The position numbers and the translations under genes are program-made. A stretch of DNA of 64,000 bases from a virus (Duplodnaviria > Caudoviricetes). The notes under the pieces were generated by a model. That model searched no databases and had not been told where the DNA came from. It worked only from the letters and a program-made list of their open reading frames with translations. The stretch lies in IMG/VR virus record IMGVR_UViG_3300021960_000017; one strand, given 5' to 3'. This document shows, in pieces, positions 37,182 to 60,170 of this stretch. Position 1 is the stretch's first letter. Each line of letters begins with the position of its first letter.

Positions 37182-37256
37182 TGCCTTTGTTTGCCTAAAT
37201 GCCTAAAGTTTTCGTTTTTTGCCTAAGTCATTACTGAGTAATGACGTTTTTATTTA
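37182..37256 (-). promoter_or_regulatory. late promoter + palindrome + 4x (T/A)AGGCA leader of the dnaE-like gene
   Basis: TAAATA 37251-37256; GTCATTACT-N-AGTAATGAC 37227-37245; repeats at 37220, 37200, 37192, 37182. Confidence 0.65.
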
Positions 37257-39978: not shown

Positions 39979-41212
39979 AGTAGCATTCACTCAAGCATGG
40001 TATCTTGTTGAGGGTAAAGAGGGCAAGAATGTCCACTTAACTCATCTAGAAGACCTAGTGTTTGATGAAGGCTATGCTGGTGCACAAAAAGCTCTACAGT
40101 ATGTAAACGGTGTGCGTGACATGCTAGCACAGGGTGGCGGCAAGCAGAAAGTAACAGTAAAATGGGACGGTGCACCTGCTATATTTGCTGGCACAGATCC
40201 GGCAGATGGTAAGTTTTTTGTTGGCACCAAGAGCGTGTTTGCTCAGTCTCCTAAATTAGTTAAAGACAAAGCAAGTTTAGACGAGTATTATGCTGGTACA
40301 GCATTACACGATATACTGGGACAAAGTTTTACCTATTTAAAAAAGTTAGGCATACAGGGTGTGCTACAGGGCGACCTATTGTTTAGCCCACTAAGGCCTC
40401 CTGAAACATCTGAAATAGATGGTGAAAGTTATATTACTTTTAGACCTAACACAATTACATATGCTGTAAAAGATGGAACAGACTTAGCAAATCGTATTAA
40501 ACGTGCTAAACTAGGTGTAGTATTCCATACAACATACTCAGGCCCTAGTGTAGCAGACATGCAGGCAGAGTTTGGTGCTGATGTAAGCAGTTTAAAAGGC
40601 AGCTCAGATGTTTGGGTTGAGGATGCTTACTACAAAGATTATACTGGCACAGCCACACTAACTGATGCTGAAAATAAGGAAATGCTAGCCAAGGTACAGG
40701 GTATTAGCAACCAACTTAAAAAGACAGATCCTGCTACTTTTGACAAGTTCTTAAATGAACCTGACATAAGTGCTATGCTTAATATTTTTATGAACAGCCG
40801 AGTGCGTAGCGGTGAAATGGTAGGCGATCCTAAAGCATTTATAAATGGATTCCTTCAATTTTATAAAGACCGTATGCAAAAAGAAGTAGAGAAACTAAAA
40901 GGTGGCGCAGATTCACCAGCAGGCCAACGTCGCATGGAAAAGATAAATGCCATGAACGACTTTGTTAAAGATAACTTCAGTACACTTGTTAGTATGCTTG
41001 ACATTTATAGACAATTAATTGGTGCTAAACTATCCCTAATAAGCAAACTAAATACGGTAGAGGGTATTGGTACTTTCCTTAAAACTGATACTGGTTATAA
41101 GGTTACTAATCCTGAAGGCTATGTGGCAATAGGCCATGAAGGTGGTGCAGTTAAATTCAACGATAGATTGGAATTTAACCGTGCTAACTTTATGCTTGCC
41201 AAGGAATGGTAA
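39965..41212 (+). CDS. RNA-ligase-like (KxDG) putative virion protein, DUF6267-like
   Basis: HLTHLED, VTVKWDGAPA, FVGTKS, LQGDLLF, PEGYV. Confidence 0.7.
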   Translation: MKINEVAFTQAWYLVEGKEGKNVHLTHLEDLVFDEGYAGAQKALQYVNGVRDMLAQGGGKQKVTVKWDGAPAIFAGTDPADGKFFVGTKSVFAQSPKLVKDKASLDEYYAGTALHDILGQSFTYLKKLGIQGVLQGDLLFSPLRPPETSEIDGESYITFRPNTITYAVKDGTDLANRIKRAKLGVVFHTTYSGPSVADMQAEFGADVSSLKGSSDVWVEDAYYKDYTGTATLTDAENKEMLAKVQGISNQLKKTDPATFDKFLNEPDISAMLNIFMNSRVRSGEMVGDPKAFINGFLQFYKDRMQKEVEKLKGGADSPAGQRRMEKINAMNDFVKDNFSTLVSMLDIYRQLIGAKLSLISKLNTVEGIGTFLKTDTGYKVTNPEGYVAIGHEGGAVKFNDRLEFNRANFMLAKEW

Positions 41213-41887
41213 ATGTTTGAATTTTTAAAAGAAGAATTAACAGAAGCAAAGTATATTAGATCTCCTCGCGACACAGTAGGCCGTAGTGATCAAGGTATTG
41301 CTGAAAGTTTCTTTGAACATTTATTAGTTCTACAACAAATGCGTTTTGAAAATCCAGCATATGCTCAGAAGTATGCTAGTGATACGTTACGCTACATGAG
41401 CTTTAACAATGTTAGAACTGGCGCAACTGATTTGCACAATCTAGCAAGCATACTTAATAATCCAACTAGATTTGCAGACAAAATGGGCACAAGTGGCTTA
41501 CAATTTGACGAACTAGGATTTAAACGCTACCTTCGCAATATTAAAGATGGCAAATATATGCCCGCTCAAGACCGTGCATTCTTTTATAAAATGCAAAAAA
41601 ATCTAGGCATAAAAAATGGTCTACTCAACCAGGCAAGACGCATGATGAGTGATTATACTGCGGCTAGTGGCAGTGAGCGTACTAATGTAAGTGCTAGAAT
41701 GGTAAATGCATTTAGACAAGATGGCCAATATCGCAGTGATATGTTTAGTCCATATGCTAAAACAATTAAAAACAATAAACTACTTCCTGACACAGAAAAG
41801 CCAGGAATGAGTTTGGCTGCAAAGACTGCTATTGCTACTGTAGGCGGTTTTGCTGCTGGATATGCAATTTCTAGAGCTCTAGACTAA
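41213..41887 (+). CDS. putative virion/head protein
   Basis: N-terminal LKEELTEA propeptide-like segment; hydrophobic G/A C-terminus. Confidence 0.55.
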   Translation: MFEFLKEELTEAKYIRSPRDTVGRSDQGIAESFFEHLLVLQQMRFENPAYAQKYASDTLRYMSFNNVRTGATDLHNLASILNNPTRFADKMGTSGLQFDELGFKRYLRNIKDGKYMPAQDRAFFYKMQKNLGIKNGLLNQARRMMSDYTAASGSERTNVSARMVNAFRQDGQYRSDMFSPYAKTIKNNKLLPDTEKPGMSLAAKTAIATVGGFAAGYAISRALD

Positions 41888-41949
41888 AACTTTTACTTTT
41901 CCGTGATAAATATCAGTAAGCTCGAAATGATCGGGCAATGGAGAAAGAA

Positions 41950-42366
41950 ATGGCAGAAATTACCAGAGTTCACGGTAATGCTTTTGGCGTTGTAGCCAAT
42001 GACCGCGGCGAAGCCGGTAGCGGTGCAATTAGTGCAGACGAAACAGTAATTCTTAATGGTCCACAGTTAGACTTCTTTAAGATCATTGTTAAGGATGTAT
42101 CAGGTAACGTAGAGGATCTACGCAACGAATTAGACGCAGGTGAAGGTGTAGAAGCAATTCTACGTCACATTGGTCTTAAGGGTAACATTGAAATTTACCA
42201 AGTTGAGGGCGACACAAGTGGTCAAATTAGTGTTGCTATTTACCCAGCAGGTGCTTATACAGCATCAACACTTCAAACAGCAGTTCGTACATTAAGTGCT
42301 GCTGGCGCTAACAACCTCGACTGCTCAAGCAGCGATGTAACAGATCCTGGCTTCGAGCTAGTATAA
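41950..42366 (+). CDS. putative abundant virion protein
   Basis: TAAATA upstream, GGAG RBS, high-expression codon bias; start placed at MAEIT. Confidence 0.6.
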   Translation: MAEITRVHGNAFGVVANDRGEAGSGAISADETVILNGPQLDFFKIIVKDVSGNVEDLRNELDAGEGVEAILRHIGLKGNIEIYQVEGDTSGQISVAIYPAGAYTASTLQTAVRTLSAAGANNLDCSSSDVTDPGFELV

Positions 42367-42386
42367 TATAAAAGGGAACAGTTCAA

Positions 42387-42692
42387 ATGGCTGATTTAAG
42401 TGAAGGCGTAAGAAACGCACAAACATATAGCGGTGACCGTCAGGTAGCCCTAACAAGTCTCTCAAAGAGCAACATGACACAGGACGAGCTCGACGCAGCA
42501 ATCCAGTTCATTCAGAAGACAGCAACAGTTATCGGTATCGGTGACGACACAGCAGGTGGCTTTAACGCTGGTGTTAGTGATGTTGTTTATGTACTTTCAG
42601 AAGGTCCTGCTCCAGCAGCAGGTTCAGACTTCGGTGAAGGCACAACAGGTGTAACAGCGGCAGTTGTTGCATACTTTGACAACCTTCTCTAA
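42387..42692 (+). CDS. putative abundant virion protein
   Basis: High-expression codon bias, followed by a terminator. Confidence 0.6.
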   Translation: MADLSEGVRNAQTYSGDRQVALTSLSKSNMTQDELDAAIQFIQKTATVIGIGDDTAGGFNAGVSDVVYVLSEGPAPAAGSDFGEGTTGVTAAVVAYFDNLL

Positions 42693-42711
42693 GGTTTAAA
42701 AATAAACTGTT

Positions 42712-42744
42712 AAAAGGGCGGTGTTTTTACATCGCCCTTTTTTA
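42712..42744 (+). terminator. intrinsic terminator
   Basis: AAAAGGGCGGTGT-tttt-ACATCGCCCTTTT + TTT. Confidence 0.85.
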
Positions 42745-42762
42745 TTCTACATACATAATAAT

Positions 42763-43182
42763 ATGAGACATTGTTCAAGCGTATGGCAGGATCATCCTGG
42801 CATACATAAAGTAGATATCGATAAACTAAGTCCAATGAGTTGGCATGCAGATAACCGTTGGTACTGGCGAGATTTGCCACGCATAATGGATGACGGTTTG
42901 TGGTATCCATTACTATATTATAAATGTACACTAGACTGGTGGAACACAAGTTTCTACAAACGCAAAGGTTCACACGAAATGTGGACGCATATAAATCCTC
43001 CCCAAGTAAATGAAGATGGTATGATATGGGGCGTGTATATGGGCACAAACAGATTGAAATGTCTTAAGTTTATGTCGTATAATAGTGTTGATTGTATAGA
43101 ATGCAAAGGCCAGGCACAGTTAATCGAGCTAGGTGTATATTTAAGAGACAAGGATCCACTACACAATGCCGTTACAGTATGA
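42763..43182 (+). CDS. ParB/Srx-like domain protein
   Basis: IMDDGLWYPLL...VYMGTNRL..LKFMSY..VDCI. Confidence 0.5.
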   Translation: MRHCSSVWQDHPGIHKVDIDKLSPMSWHADNRWYWRDLPRIMDDGLWYPLLYYKCTLDWWNTSFYKRKGSHEMWTHINPPQVNEDGMIWGVYMGTNRLKCLKFMSYNSVDCIECKGQAQLIELGVYLRDKDPLHNAVTV

Positions 43183-43633
43183 AGAAATATGGCACCTGCT
43201 CACACTGGTTGACATTACAGAAACTGGACATACCAGAGGCACCGGACTATTAAGAAATCAACAACGTAATTTCGAAACTGTTCAGCAAGTAATAGGTATG
43301 CTAACACAGCCTTTTGGAATAGGGCCTCCTTCTAGTTACAAGTGGGGTAAAGTACATAGACGGTTTAAAGACACAGGCACGGTATGGGGCGAGGTCCATG
43401 ACTTTACTCAGGAAATGCTTGCAGATTTAAATGTGTGGTTGTGGCGTTTTGGTATAGAGCGTGAAGGTGTTTTTGATTTACATGAAAAATTTGACGGTAA
43501 AAATTTACTTAATGCGTTTGAAAATGTGCCTGTTATAACTGGATTAACAGAAAATGCAGTACTACAACCACCTGTGTTTAGTATATCCCCTAAACTACAA
43601 AATGTGCTATTAATATGTGAGACTAGGCGGTAA
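43166..43633 (+). CDS. hypothetical protein
   Basis: 155-aa ORF. Confidence 0.7.
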   Translation: MPLQYEEIWHLLTLVDITETGHTRGTGLLRNQQRNFETVQQVIGMLTQPFGIGPPSSYKWGKVHRRFKDTGTVWGEVHDFTQEMLADLNVWLWRFGIEREGVFDLHEKFDGKNLLNAFENVPVITGLTENAVLQPPVFSISPKLQNVLLICETRR

Positions 43634-43634
43634 C

Positions 43635-43734
43635 TAAATATGTATGATGCATTAGGCACAACTAGGCTCATTATAGGCAAAAAAATAGGCATACAATCAA
43701 GCATCACCCAAAGGAGTTGGTGAGACCGTAATCA
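43635..43734 (+). promoter_or_regulatory. late promoter + structured leader with 4x TAGGC
   Basis: TAAATA 43635-43640; TAGGC at 43653, 43663, 43674, 43686; GATGC/GCATC flanks; TCACC(C)AA-AGGAG-TTGGTGA hairpin. Confidence 0.65.
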
Positions 43735-43983
43735 ATGGCAGACATTGAAAAAGAAAGTTTAGAAGCACACGTAGAGTTGTGCTCTGAAAGGTATAAAGCA
43801 TTGCACGATAAACTCGATGCAGTAAATCTTCGTCTTGACAAACAAGACAAGACACTAACTCACATCGCTACTAGTATTAGCAAAATGGAAGAAGGACGCA
43901 ACAAGCAAGTAATGGCTTGGGGTGCAGGTATTATTGCTGCACTTGCTGCGGCAGTAGGCGTTTTACTTTTAAAAGTCCTTTAA
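43735..43983 (+). CDS. coiled-coil + C-terminal TM protein (XhlA/holin-like)
   Basis: Heptad region followed by WGAGIIAALAAAVGVLLL. Confidence 0.55.
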   Translation: MADIEKESLEAHVELCSERYKALHDKLDAVNLRLDKQDKTLTHIATSISKMEEGRNKQVMAWGAGIIAALAAAVGVLLLKVL

Positions 43984-44003
43984 TAAAACTCATAAATACA
44001 TAT

Positions 44004-44273
44004 ATGTTAACGAGCGAAATTACAGAAGCTATGGCGTGGGCAAAGCGTGGCAATACAGTTGTCCGTAAGTTCCGTTGTTCTAGTGGCAGACGCAAAGGGC
44101 GTATTGTTGCTAAACCTGCTCAGTGTTTTGCTGCACCTGACATACAAAAGCGTATTAAGTTAAAGATGACTAAAATGCGTTTAGGTAGCAAGATGATCAG
44201 AAAGTCTAAAAGGACCAAAAAGGTTAATCCTGCTAGTAAGAGAGTAGCAGCCCTTAATAGGAGTAGCAGATGA
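44004..44273 (+). CDS. highly basic putative head protein
   Basis: K/R-rich; ATG 5 nt after TAAATA; ITEA propeptide-like site. Confidence 0.65.
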   Translation: MLTSEITEAMAWAKRGNTVVRKFRCSSGRRKGRIVAKPAQCFAAPDIQKRIKLKMTKMRLGSKMIRKSKRTKKVNPASKRVAALNRSSR

Positions 44274-44563
44274 AAATTTTAGAAGTTTTAACTCCCAAAC
44301 TAAAAAAGGGCAGTAATGTTGTTATCAACGAATCCCCTTACCAAGTGATTAATTATGAAGGCAATGTGTTAACCGCAGTGCCGCAGGGTGGAGACCAACC
44401 TATTAAAATTGATGTAACAGGCTGGGTATTAGAATTTAGTCCACAGGGTCTAGTATTTAGACAGCCTAAAAGCCCAGCAGAAAAAGATCGTAGTCTACCA
44501 CCTGGCAGTATTGTTGACATACAGGGCACGCCTAGAATCATAGGAACTCCAGAGAGGGGTTGA
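44270..44563 (+). CDS. hypothetical (putative head) protein
   Basis: MKILE start. Confidence 0.65.
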   Translation: MKILEVLTPKLKKGSNVVINESPYQVINYEGNVLTAVPQGGDQPIKIDVTGWVLEFSPQGLVFRQPKSPAEKDRSLPPGSIVDIQGTPRIIGTPERG

Positions 44564-44564
44564 T

Positions 44565-44783
44565 ATGAGATTTTTAGAATTTTCCAAGGGACCAAGTACC
44601 TATATAACAAATGAAGAGCAAGATTTGTTGCACCATGTAGACGCAAATGGTGTTTTGTATAAAAAGAAGTTATCAGAACGTGAAGCAGAGATAGCAAACA
44701 GACTTGTAAACCGAGATTTGCTATTAAGGAAAAGAATCAATGATCAAATTACATACCAAAGAAGCTCTAAGTCAAAACCTTAA
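44565..44783 (+). CDS. hypothetical (putative head) protein
   Basis: MRFLE start. Confidence 0.65.
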   Translation: MRFLEFSKGPSTYITNEEQDLLHHVDANGVLYKKKLSEREAEIANRLVNRDLLLRKRINDQITYQRSSKSKP

Positions 44784-45162
44784 TAAAATAATCGAAAACA
44801 ATACAACATTAAAAATATTACAAAAATCAGATAAGATCTTTGTTAATAATAAAACAATAAAACAAGAAGGTGACTTTTTTGTTTTAGATAATGCTGAGTA
44901 TTTCTTTAGAAAAAAGTCTGCTGTAGCATATGCAGTTTGTTTAGAAAATAAAAATTCCAGCCTGGCTAGTAAAATACAACGGCTTGACAGTAATTTAGGC
45001 AAACTTTATGAAGATTATTTCTGGTACAGCAATGGTGTAAAGAACACAAAAGACAAAATTAAAAAAATAAATCTATTTAATAGATTATCAGATCTCAAGC
45101 CTAAACTCATGTCCACAAAACGAGAGCTGGATCTAACTTTGAAATCCGTAAAAATAGCATAA
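44740..45162 (+). CDS. hypothetical protein
   Basis: 140-aa ORF. Confidence 0.65.
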   Translation: MIKLHTKEALSQNLNKIIENNTTLKILQKSDKIFVNNKTIKQEGDFFVLDNAEYFFRKKSAVAYAVCLENKNSSLASKIQRLDSNLGKLYEDYFWYSNGVKNTKDKIKKINLFNRLSDLKPKLMSTKRELDLTLKSVKIA

Positions 45163-45188
45163 ATACAATAATAGTTGAGGAAATTACA

Positions 45189-45986
45189 ATGAATTTAGAC
45201 GACCTTATTCCGGCTCCCAATGCTAAGAAGGTAGCACAAATTGCAGGCAAGACATTTGGCTACACACTTGATTTAGACAAATTGAATCACGACAAGGCGG
45301 TAAAGTTACGTGAATCTTTTGCAGGCAAACTAGCACATATTGAAAAGAAACTAGGTGCTAAGATTGGCAATAACAGAAGTTATTTGCAAAACAAACTCTT
45401 CTTAGAAGCTATTGACAAGTTTATTGCAGAAGGCCATGGCGTGCATGGTAAGGTTTGTAAAGATTGTGGTTGTGAATTTGATAATCCAAAGCCAGGTTGT
45501 GACTGCAAACATGACGGTCATAATGCTAATGGCAGCAACTGGATCAGTGCACTAGAATTAGAAGAATCAGTTGTTACTGAAGGCACACTTGAAAATTCAG
45601 AACTAGTGCTTGCTGCTAAAGACATGGTAGACAAGATCCAGGCTATGGTAGAAGATCTAGGCGAGATGCAAAACGAACAATTAGGTCCTCTTACAGATGC
45701 TATTAGAGACGAGATGGGTACCGACGTTGCAGACCAATTTAAAGTTGCAATGGAACAGGTAGTAGTTAGCGCACTTGAAAATATGAGAGCAAGTCGCGAC
45801 GCTGCTGACCAAGCAAGTAGAATCCTACAAGGCGAAGCACCACCAGCAATGATGGGTCCAGAAGAGGAACCAGCAATGGAACCAACAACTGACATGGACA
45901 TGGAACAGCCAGCTGAAGAAGACTTTGGTGCTGCTGATGCCGCACAAGCAGGTGACGAAGAGCTAGGCAGAGAACGCCGTGGCTAA
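45189..45986 (+). CDS. putative prohead core/scaffold protein
   Basis: Late promoter; helical acidic C-terminal half; internal Cys/His cluster (CKDC..CDCKHDGH). Confidence 0.5.
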   Translation: MNLDDLIPAPNAKKVAQIAGKTFGYTLDLDKLNHDKAVKLRESFAGKLAHIEKKLGAKIGNNRSYLQNKLFLEAIDKFIAEGHGVHGKVCKDCGCEFDNPKPGCDCKHDGHNANGSNWISALELEESVVTEGTLENSELVLAAKDMVDKIQAMVEDLGEMQNEQLGPLTDAIRDEMGTDVADQFKVAMEQVVVSALENMRASRDAADQASRILQGEAPPAMMGPEEEPAMEPTTDMDMEQPAEEDFGAADAAQAGDEELGRERRG

Positions 45987-47166
45987 ACTGTTTGCAGACT
46001 ATCTAAAAGAAGCAGACGAAAATCCCGCAGCCATTATAATGAGCGTTGCAGAACTTATGCGTAAGGATATGGATGCAGATAATGAGGTTGCTAAAACCAG
46101 TATTCCATTTTTCCTAATGCAGTTACGCAATGCTGGACTGCCTATTTCCTACGCTGGCTTAAAAGCATACTACAATGCTCATCCAGAACTTAAGAATGTT
46201 ATACAAACATTCAATGATGAGGAAATCATATTTGTAGGACAAGGCGACGAAGCTGACGGCGAAACACTAGGCGAACCACAGGGCGACATTCCTCCTGAAG
46301 AAGTGGTAGACAACATGGCAAAACGTGCTATGAATAAGAGAATGAACGAGGAAGAAGTTGAGCTTGATGAAGCAAGAGTCCCTAAAGATGACTTAAACTG
46401 GGTTGCAACAGGTGGAGAATTCGGTAAGAAAAGAAGATTTCCTGGTTACATTATTAAAAAAGAAGGCATTAAGTACAACGCATACGACGAAGATGATATG
46501 GACCGAAGAGCGGGAGCTATGTCTTTAGAGGGTTTGGCTAGAATGTTGAAGCCTTATATAGATAGAAGAATAGGTGGCGGTTGGGAACTAAGTAAAGCTC
46601 TTGGATTGGATGACACAATGATAGAAGGCAAAGATCAAGGCGCTTCCAAAGAAGAGGAAGATGAATTCCATGTTGCACTAGACGATTTAGTGCACAAAAC
46701 TTTTGGCCATAGTAGTATGGAAAAGAAGAAGAAACCAGCAAGGGAAGAAAGGATGTCTCAAGAAGAATTCGACTACTGGCAATCACCAGAGAGTCTAGCA
46801 AAACTTGCAGGCATTGCTGAAGCAAAAGCAGATCCCAAGATTGTAGCAAAATTTGCAAGAGTTCCAGGAAGCCAGCGTTCATACTACATTATGAAGTGGG
46901 CAGAAGAAAACGGCATTGATGGCAACGAAGCAATGGAGCTTGCTGGCTATGAAAAAGGTAGCTATATGGGCTATGGCACTTATAACTGGCGCTATGTTGG
47001 TGAATCAGACATTAGCGAACGCAAACTTACAGGTGGTGAAAAGCGTAGCCGCGAAGCCAATGTAAAAAAATTAAAAAAGCATAAGGGCGACTTTGAAAAA
47101 CGCTATGGCAAAGATGCTGAAAGCGTAATGTATGCCGTTGCTACAAAGCGTGCTAAAGGGGACTGA
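45979..47166 (+). CDS. multi-module putative internal head protein
   Basis: Modules separated by [ILV]xE sites (LKEA, LDEA, MIEG, IAEA, ISER). Confidence 0.55.
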   Translation: MAKLFADYLKEADENPAAIIMSVAELMRKDMDADNEVAKTSIPFFLMQLRNAGLPISYAGLKAYYNAHPELKNVIQTFNDEEIIFVGQGDEADGETLGEPQGDIPPEEVVDNMAKRAMNKRMNEEEVELDEARVPKDDLNWVATGGEFGKKRRFPGYIIKKEGIKYNAYDEDDMDRRAGAMSLEGLARMLKPYIDRRIGGGWELSKALGLDDTMIEGKDQGASKEEEDEFHVALDDLVHKTFGHSSMEKKKKPAREERMSQEEFDYWQSPESLAKLAGIAEAKADPKIVAKFARVPGSQRSYYIMKWAEENGIDGNEAMELAGYEKGSYMGYGTYNWRYVGESDISERKLTGGEKRSREANVKKLKKHKGDFEKRYGKDAESVMYAVATKRAKGD

Positions 47167-57956: not shown

Positions 57957-59858
57957 ATGGCAACTATTAAAGCAACTATCACTAGTCTTGGTCTTAATGC
58001 ACTGGGTGGTGCAGTAAATGGTCAGGGTTTAAATAACCTAGGTAAAATTTTAAGTCAGCCTATGTCTAACCTTGGTGGATTTGGCGGTCAGATGGATGCC
58101 CAGGCTAAAATTGCAAATATAATTAAAACAGATTACGATACTCCAGCATTATTAAATGCTGGTGGTTTTAATCCATTAGTTTACCTTAGCAATGCATTAA
58201 CTGGTGTAGCAGATGAAGTAGGCAGCGCAACTAGTGATGGTCGTGGTGCTATTTCCGGATCACTAGGATCAGGTTTTCAAGCTCTAGATGGATCAGGTAT
58301 AGTAGATGCAATTAGTATACACACAGAGTACCTTAAAGGAAGTTATGGTGCTAATAGTATTATGCAGTGTTTTGTTGGTGTAGAAGCATTTTGCTTTATC
58401 AGTAAAGAAATGTACCAAACACTCGAAGGCGGTCTAGCAGCTCGTTTTGGTAGCGCATTTGCTGCGTTAAACAGTAGTTTACCAGCAAGTGAAACATTAT
58501 CAGCAGTAGATAGTACATTTTTAGCAAATAATAGTAACAGTGAAGTAGAGGAAATATTAGGTGGCGAATATGCCTTTACCAATTTTCTTGGTGTTAATAT
58601 AAACAACATCACAGACGCAATAACAAATGGTTTTAGTAATTTTATTACTGGTAATGTAAAAACAACTTTAGCACAACTTGCAGTTGATTTTACCAACCTT
58701 GGTAATGCGTATGATCTTACAGACATAGACAACTTTGGAAATCCCGGACAGATAGTAGACAGATTAATTAGTGTGGGTGCTGGTGATATTACGGGTGTAA
58801 TAGATGCTATGCAGGATATTGGTGGAAATCAATTACTTGCAAATGTTGGTAATTTATCCAGTAGCCAGTTTAACAGTCAATTAACAGATGCATTAAGTTT
58901 AATTACCAACTCTGAGATGATTGCAATAGCGCAACAAGCATTAGGTAGTAATGTTCCTAATTTGACTAGTTTGGCTGACTTAACTGATATAAGGAAAGTA
59001 TTACCAACGAGTTTTGATAATATTAGTCCTAATACTTTTACTCAACTAGTTGTTGAACTTAAAAATTTAAATATTGGAAATTTACAAACACCGCAACAAC
59101 TTGGTACATTACTCGGACGATTCGATTTTCCTGTAAGTTTGCCTACAATAGAAAATTCAACAGTATTAATTGACAATGACGCCGCTGCAAATATTAGAAC
59201 TAAGTTTTTAAATAAAAACTTTAAAGACATGAAAGTAAGTGATGCAATAGGGTCACTTGCGGGTGTTGGTATAAGAAACCCAATTACTAGGTTTACTAAT
59301 GCTATGACAGAAATGGCTAACGCTGGTGCATTTACTGCATTAAATGCTTTATATACTCGTCTTAATGCAGGGTTAAATGGAGATTATAATACAGGCGCTG
59401 TATATGGTGTAGATACTATTGATGATCCGGTAACCAGTATAAGTTATAATGACATGGATGCGTTTGTTAATGCTACACTTTCCCTTATTGGCGCAGAGAT
59501 AACCAGCATTGCGAGCACGGCTGCTTACAGTGATGCTTTTAATAGAGCCCGTGATGCAATTACAGAAATACAGCAAAAAATTTACGATGAAAGCATTACA
59601 TATATTCCTATGATGGATTTGCATTTAAATGATAGAAATAATGATCCTGTAAATGTATATGGTTTTGCGACAAGCATGGAGTCAAGAGTAGAAGACCCTG
59701 ATGCTTTAGATGTACTAAAAGGATTAGCAGAGGCGGCTAAATTACAGAATGATAAGTTTGGTAGCTATTGGGACGCATTTATAAGCGAAACCGTTAATAG
59801 AAACGCTGTTCAAACGCATTCAATAGACTGGATTGCAGAAGATAAAATAGAAATTTAA
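57957..59858 (+). CDS. putative tail/baseplate structural protein
   Basis: 633 aa, G/N/S/T-rich, immediately downstream of the PAAR gene. Confidence 0.55.
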   Translation: MATIKATITSLGLNALGGAVNGQGLNNLGKILSQPMSNLGGFGGQMDAQAKIANIIKTDYDTPALLNAGGFNPLVYLSNALTGVADEVGSATSDGRGAISGSLGSGFQALDGSGIVDAISIHTEYLKGSYGANSIMQCFVGVEAFCFISKEMYQTLEGGLAARFGSAFAALNSSLPASETLSAVDSTFLANNSNSEVEEILGGEYAFTNFLGVNINNITDAITNGFSNFITGNVKTTLAQLAVDFTNLGNAYDLTDIDNFGNPGQIVDRLISVGAGDITGVIDAMQDIGGNQLLANVGNLSSSQFNSQLTDALSLITNSEMIAIAQQALGSNVPNLTSLADLTDIRKVLPTSFDNISPNTFTQLVVELKNLNIGNLQTPQQLGTLLGRFDFPVSLPTIENSTVLIDNDAAANIRTKFLNKNFKDMKVSDAIGSLAGVGIRNPITRFTNAMTEMANAGAFTALNALYTRLNAGLNGDYNTGAVYGVDTIDDPVTSISYNDMDAFVNATLSLIGAEITSIASTAAYSDAFNRARDAITEIQQKIYDESITYIPMMDLHLNDRNNDPVNVYGFATSMESRVEDPDALDVLKGLAEAAKLQNDKFGSYWDAFISETVNRNAVQTHSIDWIAEDKIEI

Positions 59859-59893
59859 CAAATTTTTCCAGTATTACTTACATAAATAAACAC

Positions 59894-60170
59894 TGTAACG
59901 TCGAAGGGCGTTGAAAAACGTAATGGACATGGGGGCAGTACCCATCGTCTCCACCATAAGCACATGGCATTTGTAGTGTGTTTATGTGGGGACGAACCAG
60001 GATCGACATGCGTGGAGTATACAACTGGAGTTATCGGTAGGCGTGACCGTAAATCAGCAAAACAAAGTAAATGCAAACGATAATTTTGCATCTGAGGATT
60101 TTGCCCTAGCGGCATAATACCTATGGGCGTACAGGGCGCCTGGAAACAGAAGGGACTTAGGTCCCACCTG
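59894..60170 (+). ncRNA. ssrA: two-piece (circularly permuted) tmRNA
   Basis: Acceptor piece: T-arm ATGGG-GGCAGTA-CCCAT and CGTCTCC-A-CCA (ends 59956); hairpin intervening sequence 59957-59987; coding piece starts GGGGACG (59988) giving G3.U70; tag GCA AAC GAT...GCA TAA = ANDNFASEDFALAA at 60073-60117; outer ends approximate. Confidence 0.95.

Follow-up and report, generated by a model that had tools for sequence, protein, structure and literature searches.

The locus considered here lies in a stretch of 64,000 nucleotides (IMG/VR record IMGVR_UViG_3300021960_000017; Caudoviricetes), referred to below as the window. The window belongs to a large phage which encodes ribonucleotide reductase, an exonuclease, tail-spike-like proteins and a piece of a DnaE-like polymerase. 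It also encodes a DUF6267 protein, common to T4-like marine myoviruses, and its genes use canonical AGGAG-type Shine-Dalgarno sites. A two-piece (permuted, alpha-type) tmRNA gene is present at 59852–60160 on the plus strand (Rfam RF04321, 120.8 bits; RF01849, 112 bits), which ARAGORN did not report; a TAAATA box is located at about 59883, near the 5' end of the tmRNA.

On the plus strand a 155-aa ORF (43166–43633) is followed, after some 100 bases, by an 82-aa ORF (43735–43983). Judging from the relatives, these 100 bases are a conserved 5' untranslated leader of a giant-phage late mRNA, with the 82-aa ORF directly 3' of it. The earlier note's description of the product of this ORF as holin-like is weakly founded. 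The product has an N-terminal coiled coil and a single C-terminal membrane helix, and its similarity to XhlA-type proteins is only faint (phrog_1193, E 2.5e-4; Pfam XhlA, E 0.12; an Atlas XhlA cluster at rank 37). The 155-aa neighbour is conserved and without a family match. Its structural model, a confident one (pLDDT 82), is a ferredoxin-like alpha/beta sandwich, the best PDB match of which, to ribosomal protein S6, is non-significant (E 0.025). It was considered as a candidate regulator and, being without a significant structural relative, we make no call on it.

Downstream of the 82-aa gene there is a very basic 89-aa ORF (44004–44273, plus strand) and, beyond it, further small ORFs, one of which matches the virion structural protein family phrog_16215; these genes together suggest a set of small late virion proteins. 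Within the last codons of the 82-aa ORF there is a hairpin of terminator-like form with a tail rich in T (43931–43967, plus strand), and another TAAATA box (43993–44006 region, plus strand) stands only 5 nt before the next ATG at 44004. It is possible, then, that the 82-aa gene is transcribed as a short unit of its own; the gene starting at 44004 would have almost no leader.

The leader consists of three modules, namely a stem (P1), a 50-nt nearly G-free loop carrying four UAGGC(A/U) units, and a hairpin (P2). The 5' arm of P1, GAUGC (43646–43650, plus strand), is at the predicted 5' end of the mRNA, and the 3' arm, GCAUC, is at 43701–43705; the array between them (UAGGCA, UAGGCU, UAGGCA and UAGGCA; 43653–43691) is set in an A/C-rich tract. 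As the earlier note had reported, the four copies of TAGGC begin at 43653, 43663, 43674 and 43686 on the plus strand, with spacings of 10, 11 and 12 nt, and they are bracketed by GATGC and GCATC at the positions of the two arms. The hairpin that it had recognized is likewise present: P2 pairs UCACC (43704–43708) with GGUGA (43719–43723) around a 10-nt loop, and holds Shine-Dalgarno-like bases, AGGAG (43712–43716), 18 nt before the ATG at 43735. Bases 43704–43705 (UC) serve both as the end of the P1 3' arm and as the first two bases of P2. The last unit ends at 43691, some 43–45 nt before the AUG, with P2 in between, and the repeats of this leader do not extend over the ribosome site as in the T4 type.

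As a single word TAGGC is not enriched in the window (118 found versus 105.6 expected). Pairs of the word 5–8 nt apart, on the other hand, number four against an expectation of 0.40, a count reached in none of 100 shuffles, and three of these four pairs fall in the array at 43653–43691. The word AGGCWAAYA showed no clustering at other places in the window. A fifth TAGGC (43624) forms part of the last codons of the upstream 155-aa ORF and is not conserved in relatives. We rejected a 27-codon ORF within the leader (ATG at 43641), which is not conserved and has an early stop in the closest relative.

With both flanking proteins (82-aa and 155-aa) as queries, 159 IMG/VR loci from uncultured aquatic phages were collected. 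An orthologue of the 82-aa gene is present in 124 of them, giving 83 distinct upstream regions, that of the window included. Against the GenBank phage collection, neither blastn with 41000–47000 nor tblastn with the two proteins gave a match, and these searches yielded no cultured phage with the gene pair. When (not G)(not G)GGC(A/U) is counted as a unit, at least two units occur in 61 of the 83 distinct regions and at least three in 44. The exact frame of GATGC, a loop of 47–63 nt and GCATC is kept in 41 of the 83, GATGC always being accompanied by GCATC. The consensus of the 137 units in these 41 leaders is W-W-A-GGC-A-C-A, with flanking positions that are never G; they recur every 10–13 nt (mode 12), and the remainder of the loop contains 3.7% G versus 21% in the window. 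The units are found only on the sense strand, between promoter and AUG, and among the orthologous loci the element always abuts the 82-aa gene. The relatives bear out the earlier suggestion of a leader RNA with several equally spaced units resembling protein sites. About a quarter of the distinct regions (21/83) have a short leader only, without the array, and the control would therefore appear to be dispensable in some clades.

A box of the T4 late promoter type, CTAAATA (43634–43640, plus strand), ends 5 nt before GATGC. In T4, late transcripts begin about 6 nt downstream of the (TA)TAAATA box, and on this rule the transcript is predicted to start at about G43646. TAAATA is present in all 83 distinct orthologous upstream regions, and in the 41 framed leaders the gap between box and GATGC is 5 nt in 15 cases, 6 nt in eight and 8 nt in nine. 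Fourteen of the 67 copies of TAAATA in the window are situated in the 4% of its DNA that is intergenic, an approximately five-fold enrichment; these copies are mostly oriented to the nearby gene start, and nearly every intergenic gap has one. A box about 6 nt upstream of the start and enriched before genes is what one would expect of a T4-type late promoter, and the present box conforms to this. For the jumbo phage CBB, a relative, the proposed late promoter is ATAAATA, used with a gp55-like sigma factor (PMC5259590). Two public metatranscriptome runs contain contigs with the leaders of relatives (85–90% identity), one of which, of 574 nt, runs from the last part of the upstream ORF through the leader into the 82-aa ORF. 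Since these contigs show neither start nor strand, and the libraries may hold DNA, we do not regard them as evidence of transcription.

Folding of single sequences gave values no better than shuffles (z 0.03 for the whole leader; 0.13 and −0.39 for its parts), and the case for structure is therefore made by comparison among the relatives. The arms of P2 vary by clade while pairing is kept: TCACC/GGTGA, TCGCC/GGTGA (with a G.U pair), TCGCA/TGCGA and TCGCTT/AAGCGA, and further ATCCTG/CAGGAT, ATCTC/GAGAT and TCGTTTAA/TTAAACGA. The change from A-U to G.U leaves a pair in the sense RNA only. In almost every leader P2 begins at the TC of GCATC. A MAFFT alignment of 38 leaders misplaced the 3' arm of P2, and an arm search and a model-fitted alignment were used in its place. 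The arm search gave a mean stem length of 5.05 versus 3.47 in shuffles, with a combined p of 9e-5 (Fisher, 20 arm types). In the model-fitted alignment, which leans towards the structure, 94.7% of the P2 cells pair, and sliding the partner columns destroys this pairing; cells changed on both sides number 17 versus 5.1 ± 3.1 in shuffles (0/500). A covariance model, of the kind that the earlier note had proposed, was built from 12 close leaders and gave 30 matches in 0.8 Mb, all at the orthologous position. The compensatory changes support the P2 hairpin.

In most clades the Shine-Dalgarno site (GAGG, AGGA, GGTGA or GAGA) is on the 3' side of the P2 loop or in its 3' arm, 3–8 nt before the AUG. 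With its covariation and with the site in its loop or 3' arm, P2 has the arrangement of hairpins that sequester a Shine-Dalgarno sequence. The Shine-Dalgarno sequence of the window's own clade is weak, since the conserved GGUGA sits 11 nt before the AUG. The AGGAG in the loop is peculiar to the window, the loops of close relatives being unrelated in sequence.

It was this loop which the earlier note had compared with the binding mode of CsrA/RsmA; the note took the element for a leader or a small RNA, and supposed a multi-site protein-binding RNA that may time lysis or act as a sponge. A multi-site RNA of this type would either titrate CsrA or exert control through loop-displayed GGA, and one AGGAG is indeed found in a hairpin loop of the window. 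Nevertheless the reading fails because that AGGAG is not conserved, being replaced in close relatives, and the repeated word is GGC(A/U), not GGA. No Rfam family matches the element, at the gathering threshold or with E up to 10, and this includes CsrB, RsmY and RsmZ. There is no terminator between the element and the 82-aa ORF, for which reason we consider the element to be a 5' leader, not a small RNA, and no separate transcript is expected which could serve as a sponge; its constant position against the 82-aa gene likewise speaks against a free-standing RNA. We find the CsrA explanation scarcely credible.

The core of P1 is of another character. GATGC and GCATC are invariant in the 41 leaders, and since they never vary covariation cannot prove this stem; the invariance itself hints at a role that is sequence-specific. 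Flanking pairs lengthen P1 to 6–7 bp in 39 of the 41 leaders, and in one clade it becomes a stem of 9 bp with a bulge (GATGCTAGA with TCTAGACATC). The 5' structured element of T4-like leaders may have its counterpart here in P1, which encloses the G-poor repeat tract, or in some clades in an extra 5' hairpin; no pseudoknot was found in the leader. As the UC at 43704–43705 is common to both stems, P1 and P2 might be expected to compete, and their predicted pairing probabilities are anti-correlated across the 41 leaders (r −0.78; 0.39 and 0.35, respectively, in the window). In the literature searched, the architecture of a stem-enclosed word array with a competing hairpin holding Shine-Dalgarno-like bases is undescribed.

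The word is not confined to the 82-aa gene. On the minus strand of the window, the leader of the DnaE-like polymerase gene (37182–37256) comprises CTAAATA, a 5' hairpin, three copies of UAGGCA and an AAGGCA abutting the AUG; the kinship with another TAGGC element of the window which the earlier note had implied is supported by this shared array. The product of the gene carries Pfam DNA_pol3_alpha and its finger domain. The layout is kept in 13 distinct orthologous leaders, in which the 5' hairpin covaries (GTCATTAC/GTAATGAC, GTTGCA/TGCAAC, GTGTGACA/TGTCACAC) and the last unit is the only Shine-Dalgarno-like element.

A third gene with this array, absent from the window and present in relatives, is that for the single-stranded DNA-binding protein (SSB). 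Its identification is based upon the model of a 330-aa protein, which matches the gp32 cores of RB69 and T4 (E 8e-7, probability 1.00). In 72 distinct SSB leaders a 5' hairpin is followed by mostly 2–4 units, one of which often overlaps the Shine-Dalgarno site or the AUG. A repeat tract over the ribosome site is therefore found in the SSB and DnaE-like leaders, and 5'-terminal hairpins are found in all three leader families. The SSB and 82-aa genes are together on a single contig in five relatives; in four of these each of the two leaders has units, and the fifth is without an 82-aa leader; AGGCA units occur in both leaders of relatives G005 and G008.

Several scans point to the same small set of genes. 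Low-G clusters of at least three units occur almost only before the 82-aa and DnaE-like genes in 1.54 Mb of related loci. A pattern scan of five partial relatives (~680 kb) returned only SSB and 82-aa leaders, the SSB site being that which precedes the 330-aa gene, and a scan for the promoter box plus two units again yielded these two leaders only. A strict scan of IMG/VR for three copies of TAGGCA gave for the most part tandem repeats that are unrelated, and what passed the filter consisted mainly of SSB and 82-aa leaders.

Many of the SSB genes (L161, L175–L254) have a sigma-70-like promoter (a TTGACA-type box, a spacer of ~17–18 nt, and TATACT) with TAAATA inside the spacer. Such overlapping promoters would give both early and late transcription. 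T4 gene 32 is transcribed both early and late. On one IMG/VR contig an SSB-type leader (L274:1027–1250, plus strand) precedes a 230-aa ORF which is not SSB. This leader has sigma-70-like and TAAATA promoters, a hairpin, a GGCA-type array with four evenly spaced AUAGGCA, and AGGAG; the N-terminus of the ORF resembles a GIY-YIG homing endonuclease, and the whole may be an insertion that has borrowed the SSB leader.

The SSB of the relatives is closest to those of the jumbo phages Phosso, PA5oct, Atu_ph07 and the Rak2/CBB group. In the cultured jumbo relatives (L169–L172) each SSB leader has its own repeated word, which is UUAGCAC-like in Atu_ph07, GRCUC in Phosso, GAAGCA/GAAGC-like in CBB and UAGGAUAA-like in PA5oct. 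The Atu_ph07 word, searched for as TAGCAC pairs, has only one other site in that phage, inside a CDS on the other strand, and precedes no other gene; the pattern of the CBB word was found nowhere in the form searched.

Need a protein be involved at all? One might suppose that the tract is a ribosome standby site or enhancer, that the 5' stem guards against decay dependent on the 5' end, and that P2 sets a low basal rate of initiation. Each unit holds AGG, which is Shine-Dalgarno-like, the genes of the window use AGGAG-type sites, the last unit of the polymerase leader is the only such element there, and the 5'-terminal hairpins recur in all three families. But the C that follows GG does not vary and has no partner in the anti-Shine-Dalgarno sequence, variants such as GGA or GAG, which an enhancer should tolerate, were not seen among the units, and a regular spacing restricted to three gene families out of hundreds would be unexpected of a general enhancer. 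We consider a protein-free leader unlikely.

The repeats might alternatively act in DNA, the TAGGCA copies and the GATGC/GCATC inverted repeat being bound by a transcription regulator just downstream of the late promoter. A spacing of 10–12 bp is near the helical repeat, and the core of the inverted repeat is invariant, without covariation, as would suit a DNA site. Such a regulator would not account for units that keep to the sense strand between promoter and AUG and that in two gene families overlap the Shine-Dalgarno site or the AUG. Moreover, the strand-specific depletion of G in the linkers and the G.U-tolerant covariation of the adjoining P2 are properties of RNA, and we regard an element acting in DNA as very unlikely.

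A translation control site that serves a single RNA-binding protein common to several genes is the most likely role of the leader, ahead of a small RNA or a CsrA sponge. Our preferred explanation, to which we would give a little less than an even chance, takes it for a translational operator like that of T4 gene 32, which has come to serve a small regulon and which SSB probably binds; at the 82-aa gene it would work via competition between two stems. That SSB genes of unrelated lineages are preceded by repeat arrays, with a word peculiar to each, points to SSB itself. Taking as observed the anatomy, its conservation, the covariation of P2 and the word common to three gene families, we infer where the transcript starts, which protein binds and in which direction it regulates. 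The T4-type late promoter CTAAATA would start the leader RNA at about G43646. A single-strand-binding regulator, most likely the phage SSB, would coat the array whenever there is more of it than the single-stranded DNA can take up. With SSB and polymerase, the coated array of the leader would block the ribosome site directly. In the 82-aa leader it would instead stop P1 from closing; with P1 open the shared UC would stay in P2, the Shine-Dalgarno bases would be hidden, and less of the 82-aa membrane protein would be made.

Against an SSB operator stand the invariant GGC of the units and their period of 10–13 nt, which would fit a sequence-specific, perhaps oligomeric, binder at least as well as SSB. 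The distance of the array from the AUG, the orthologous regions that lack an array, the single-sequence folding energies, the invariant core of P1 and the confinement of the Atu_ph07 word to the SSB leader also weigh against it. The same architecture and regulon might accordingly be served by a dedicated RNA-binding protein, whether a functionally RegA-like product of the phage or a protein of the host, reading (A/U)GGCA(C) as an oligomer with one unit per subunit. The exclusion of G from the flanks of an invariant GGC would agree with this, as would the tight period, which suits a sequence-specific multimer. TRAP and HutP are multimers which bind spaced units of RNA in this sequence-specific manner. 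A regulon that mixes replication genes with a late membrane protein is also in keeping with a dedicated regulator. As to which protein this might be, the ferredoxin-like 155-aa neighbour has no significant structural relative, and a search of five partial relatives for the RegA family (PF01818) gave no match, the control genomes being without a match too, so that this negative carries little weight. The recurrence of repeat arrays before SSB genes in unrelated lineages, each with a different word, points to SSB in preference to a dedicated protein. We allow the dedicated protein a minor though appreciable probability.

If the SSB operator is correct, its implications are several. T4 and its close relatives provide the textbook example of an SSB that regulates its own synthesis at the mRNA. 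Hundreds of contigs of uncultured aquatic giant phages now point to an operator of that sort, in which the word is another one and is sharply defined, and two further genes, for a polymerase and for a late membrane protein, seem to have come under it. Should SSB indeed bind, the word would define which RNA sequence a gp32-type protein recognizes, a question still open for T4 gp32. The three gene families would be an example of an SSB-centred translational regulon, and the 82-aa leader a compact two-stem leader and a candidate protein-responsive switch. The fullest form of this proposal, in which P1 and P2 compete for UC, the array is the sensor, and an XhlA-like, possibly lysis-related protein is tied to free SSB and hence to the state of phage DNA replication, seems to us quite unlikely. 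Were it true, a late or lysis function would be subject to a replication checkpoint in giant phages of a widespread, uncultured aquatic clade. The word array is in addition a practical marker with which such leaders can be annotated in metagenomic phage genomes.

Among known systems, the RNAs of the CsrB/RsmY/RsmZ type resemble the leader in carrying several repeated purine-rich words on one RNA. They display GGA in hairpin loops, are stand-alone small RNAs with a terminator and bind a host protein, none of which holds here. The RegA regulon of T4 is similar in that a single phage protein represses a set of mRNAs, its sites being short, single-stranded and located at or close to the ribosome sites (PMC3014915). 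Unlike the present arrays, RegA sites are A/U-rich, single and unstructured, and RegA does not control T4 gene 32 (PMC3014915).

The gene V protein (gp5) of M13/f1, an SSB, represses the mRNA of gene II, a different replication gene (PMC535899). It offers a precedent for an SSB which represses an mRNA other than its own, as the 82-aa leader would require. The gene V protein differs in fold and phage family, and has a single short target with no spaced array.

The closest comparison is with gene 32. In T4 the operator begins with a 5' pseudoknot; beyond it, more than 40 nt of unstructured RNA carry UUAAA/UAAA repeats across the ribosome site, and gp32 coats this tract of its own mRNA cooperatively when it exceeds the available single-stranded DNA (PMC535899; PMC3014915). 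Repression responding to free SSB is experimental in T4, whereas binding in the present phages is predicted from sequence. T4 gp32 covers ~7 nt and discriminates little between sequences, as against the invariant GGC of the units. The word also differs, being (A/U)GGCA(C) in an A/C-rich tract instead of UUAAA in an A/U-rich one, as do the period of 10–13 nt, the stem or hairpin in place of the T4 pseudoknot, and the possession of the array by three genes. The 82-aa leader departs further, since its array is enclosed by a stem and cut off from the AUG by a hairpin which holds the Shine-Dalgarno bases, and since the gene that it precedes is for a membrane protein, not SSB. What the leaders would share with gene 32 of T4, T2 and RB69 is structure predicted at the 5' end and, after it, a tract of little structure with copies of a short word and, as in gene 32, the word array of this clade precedes the gene for an SSB of the gp32 fold and overlaps its ribosome site.
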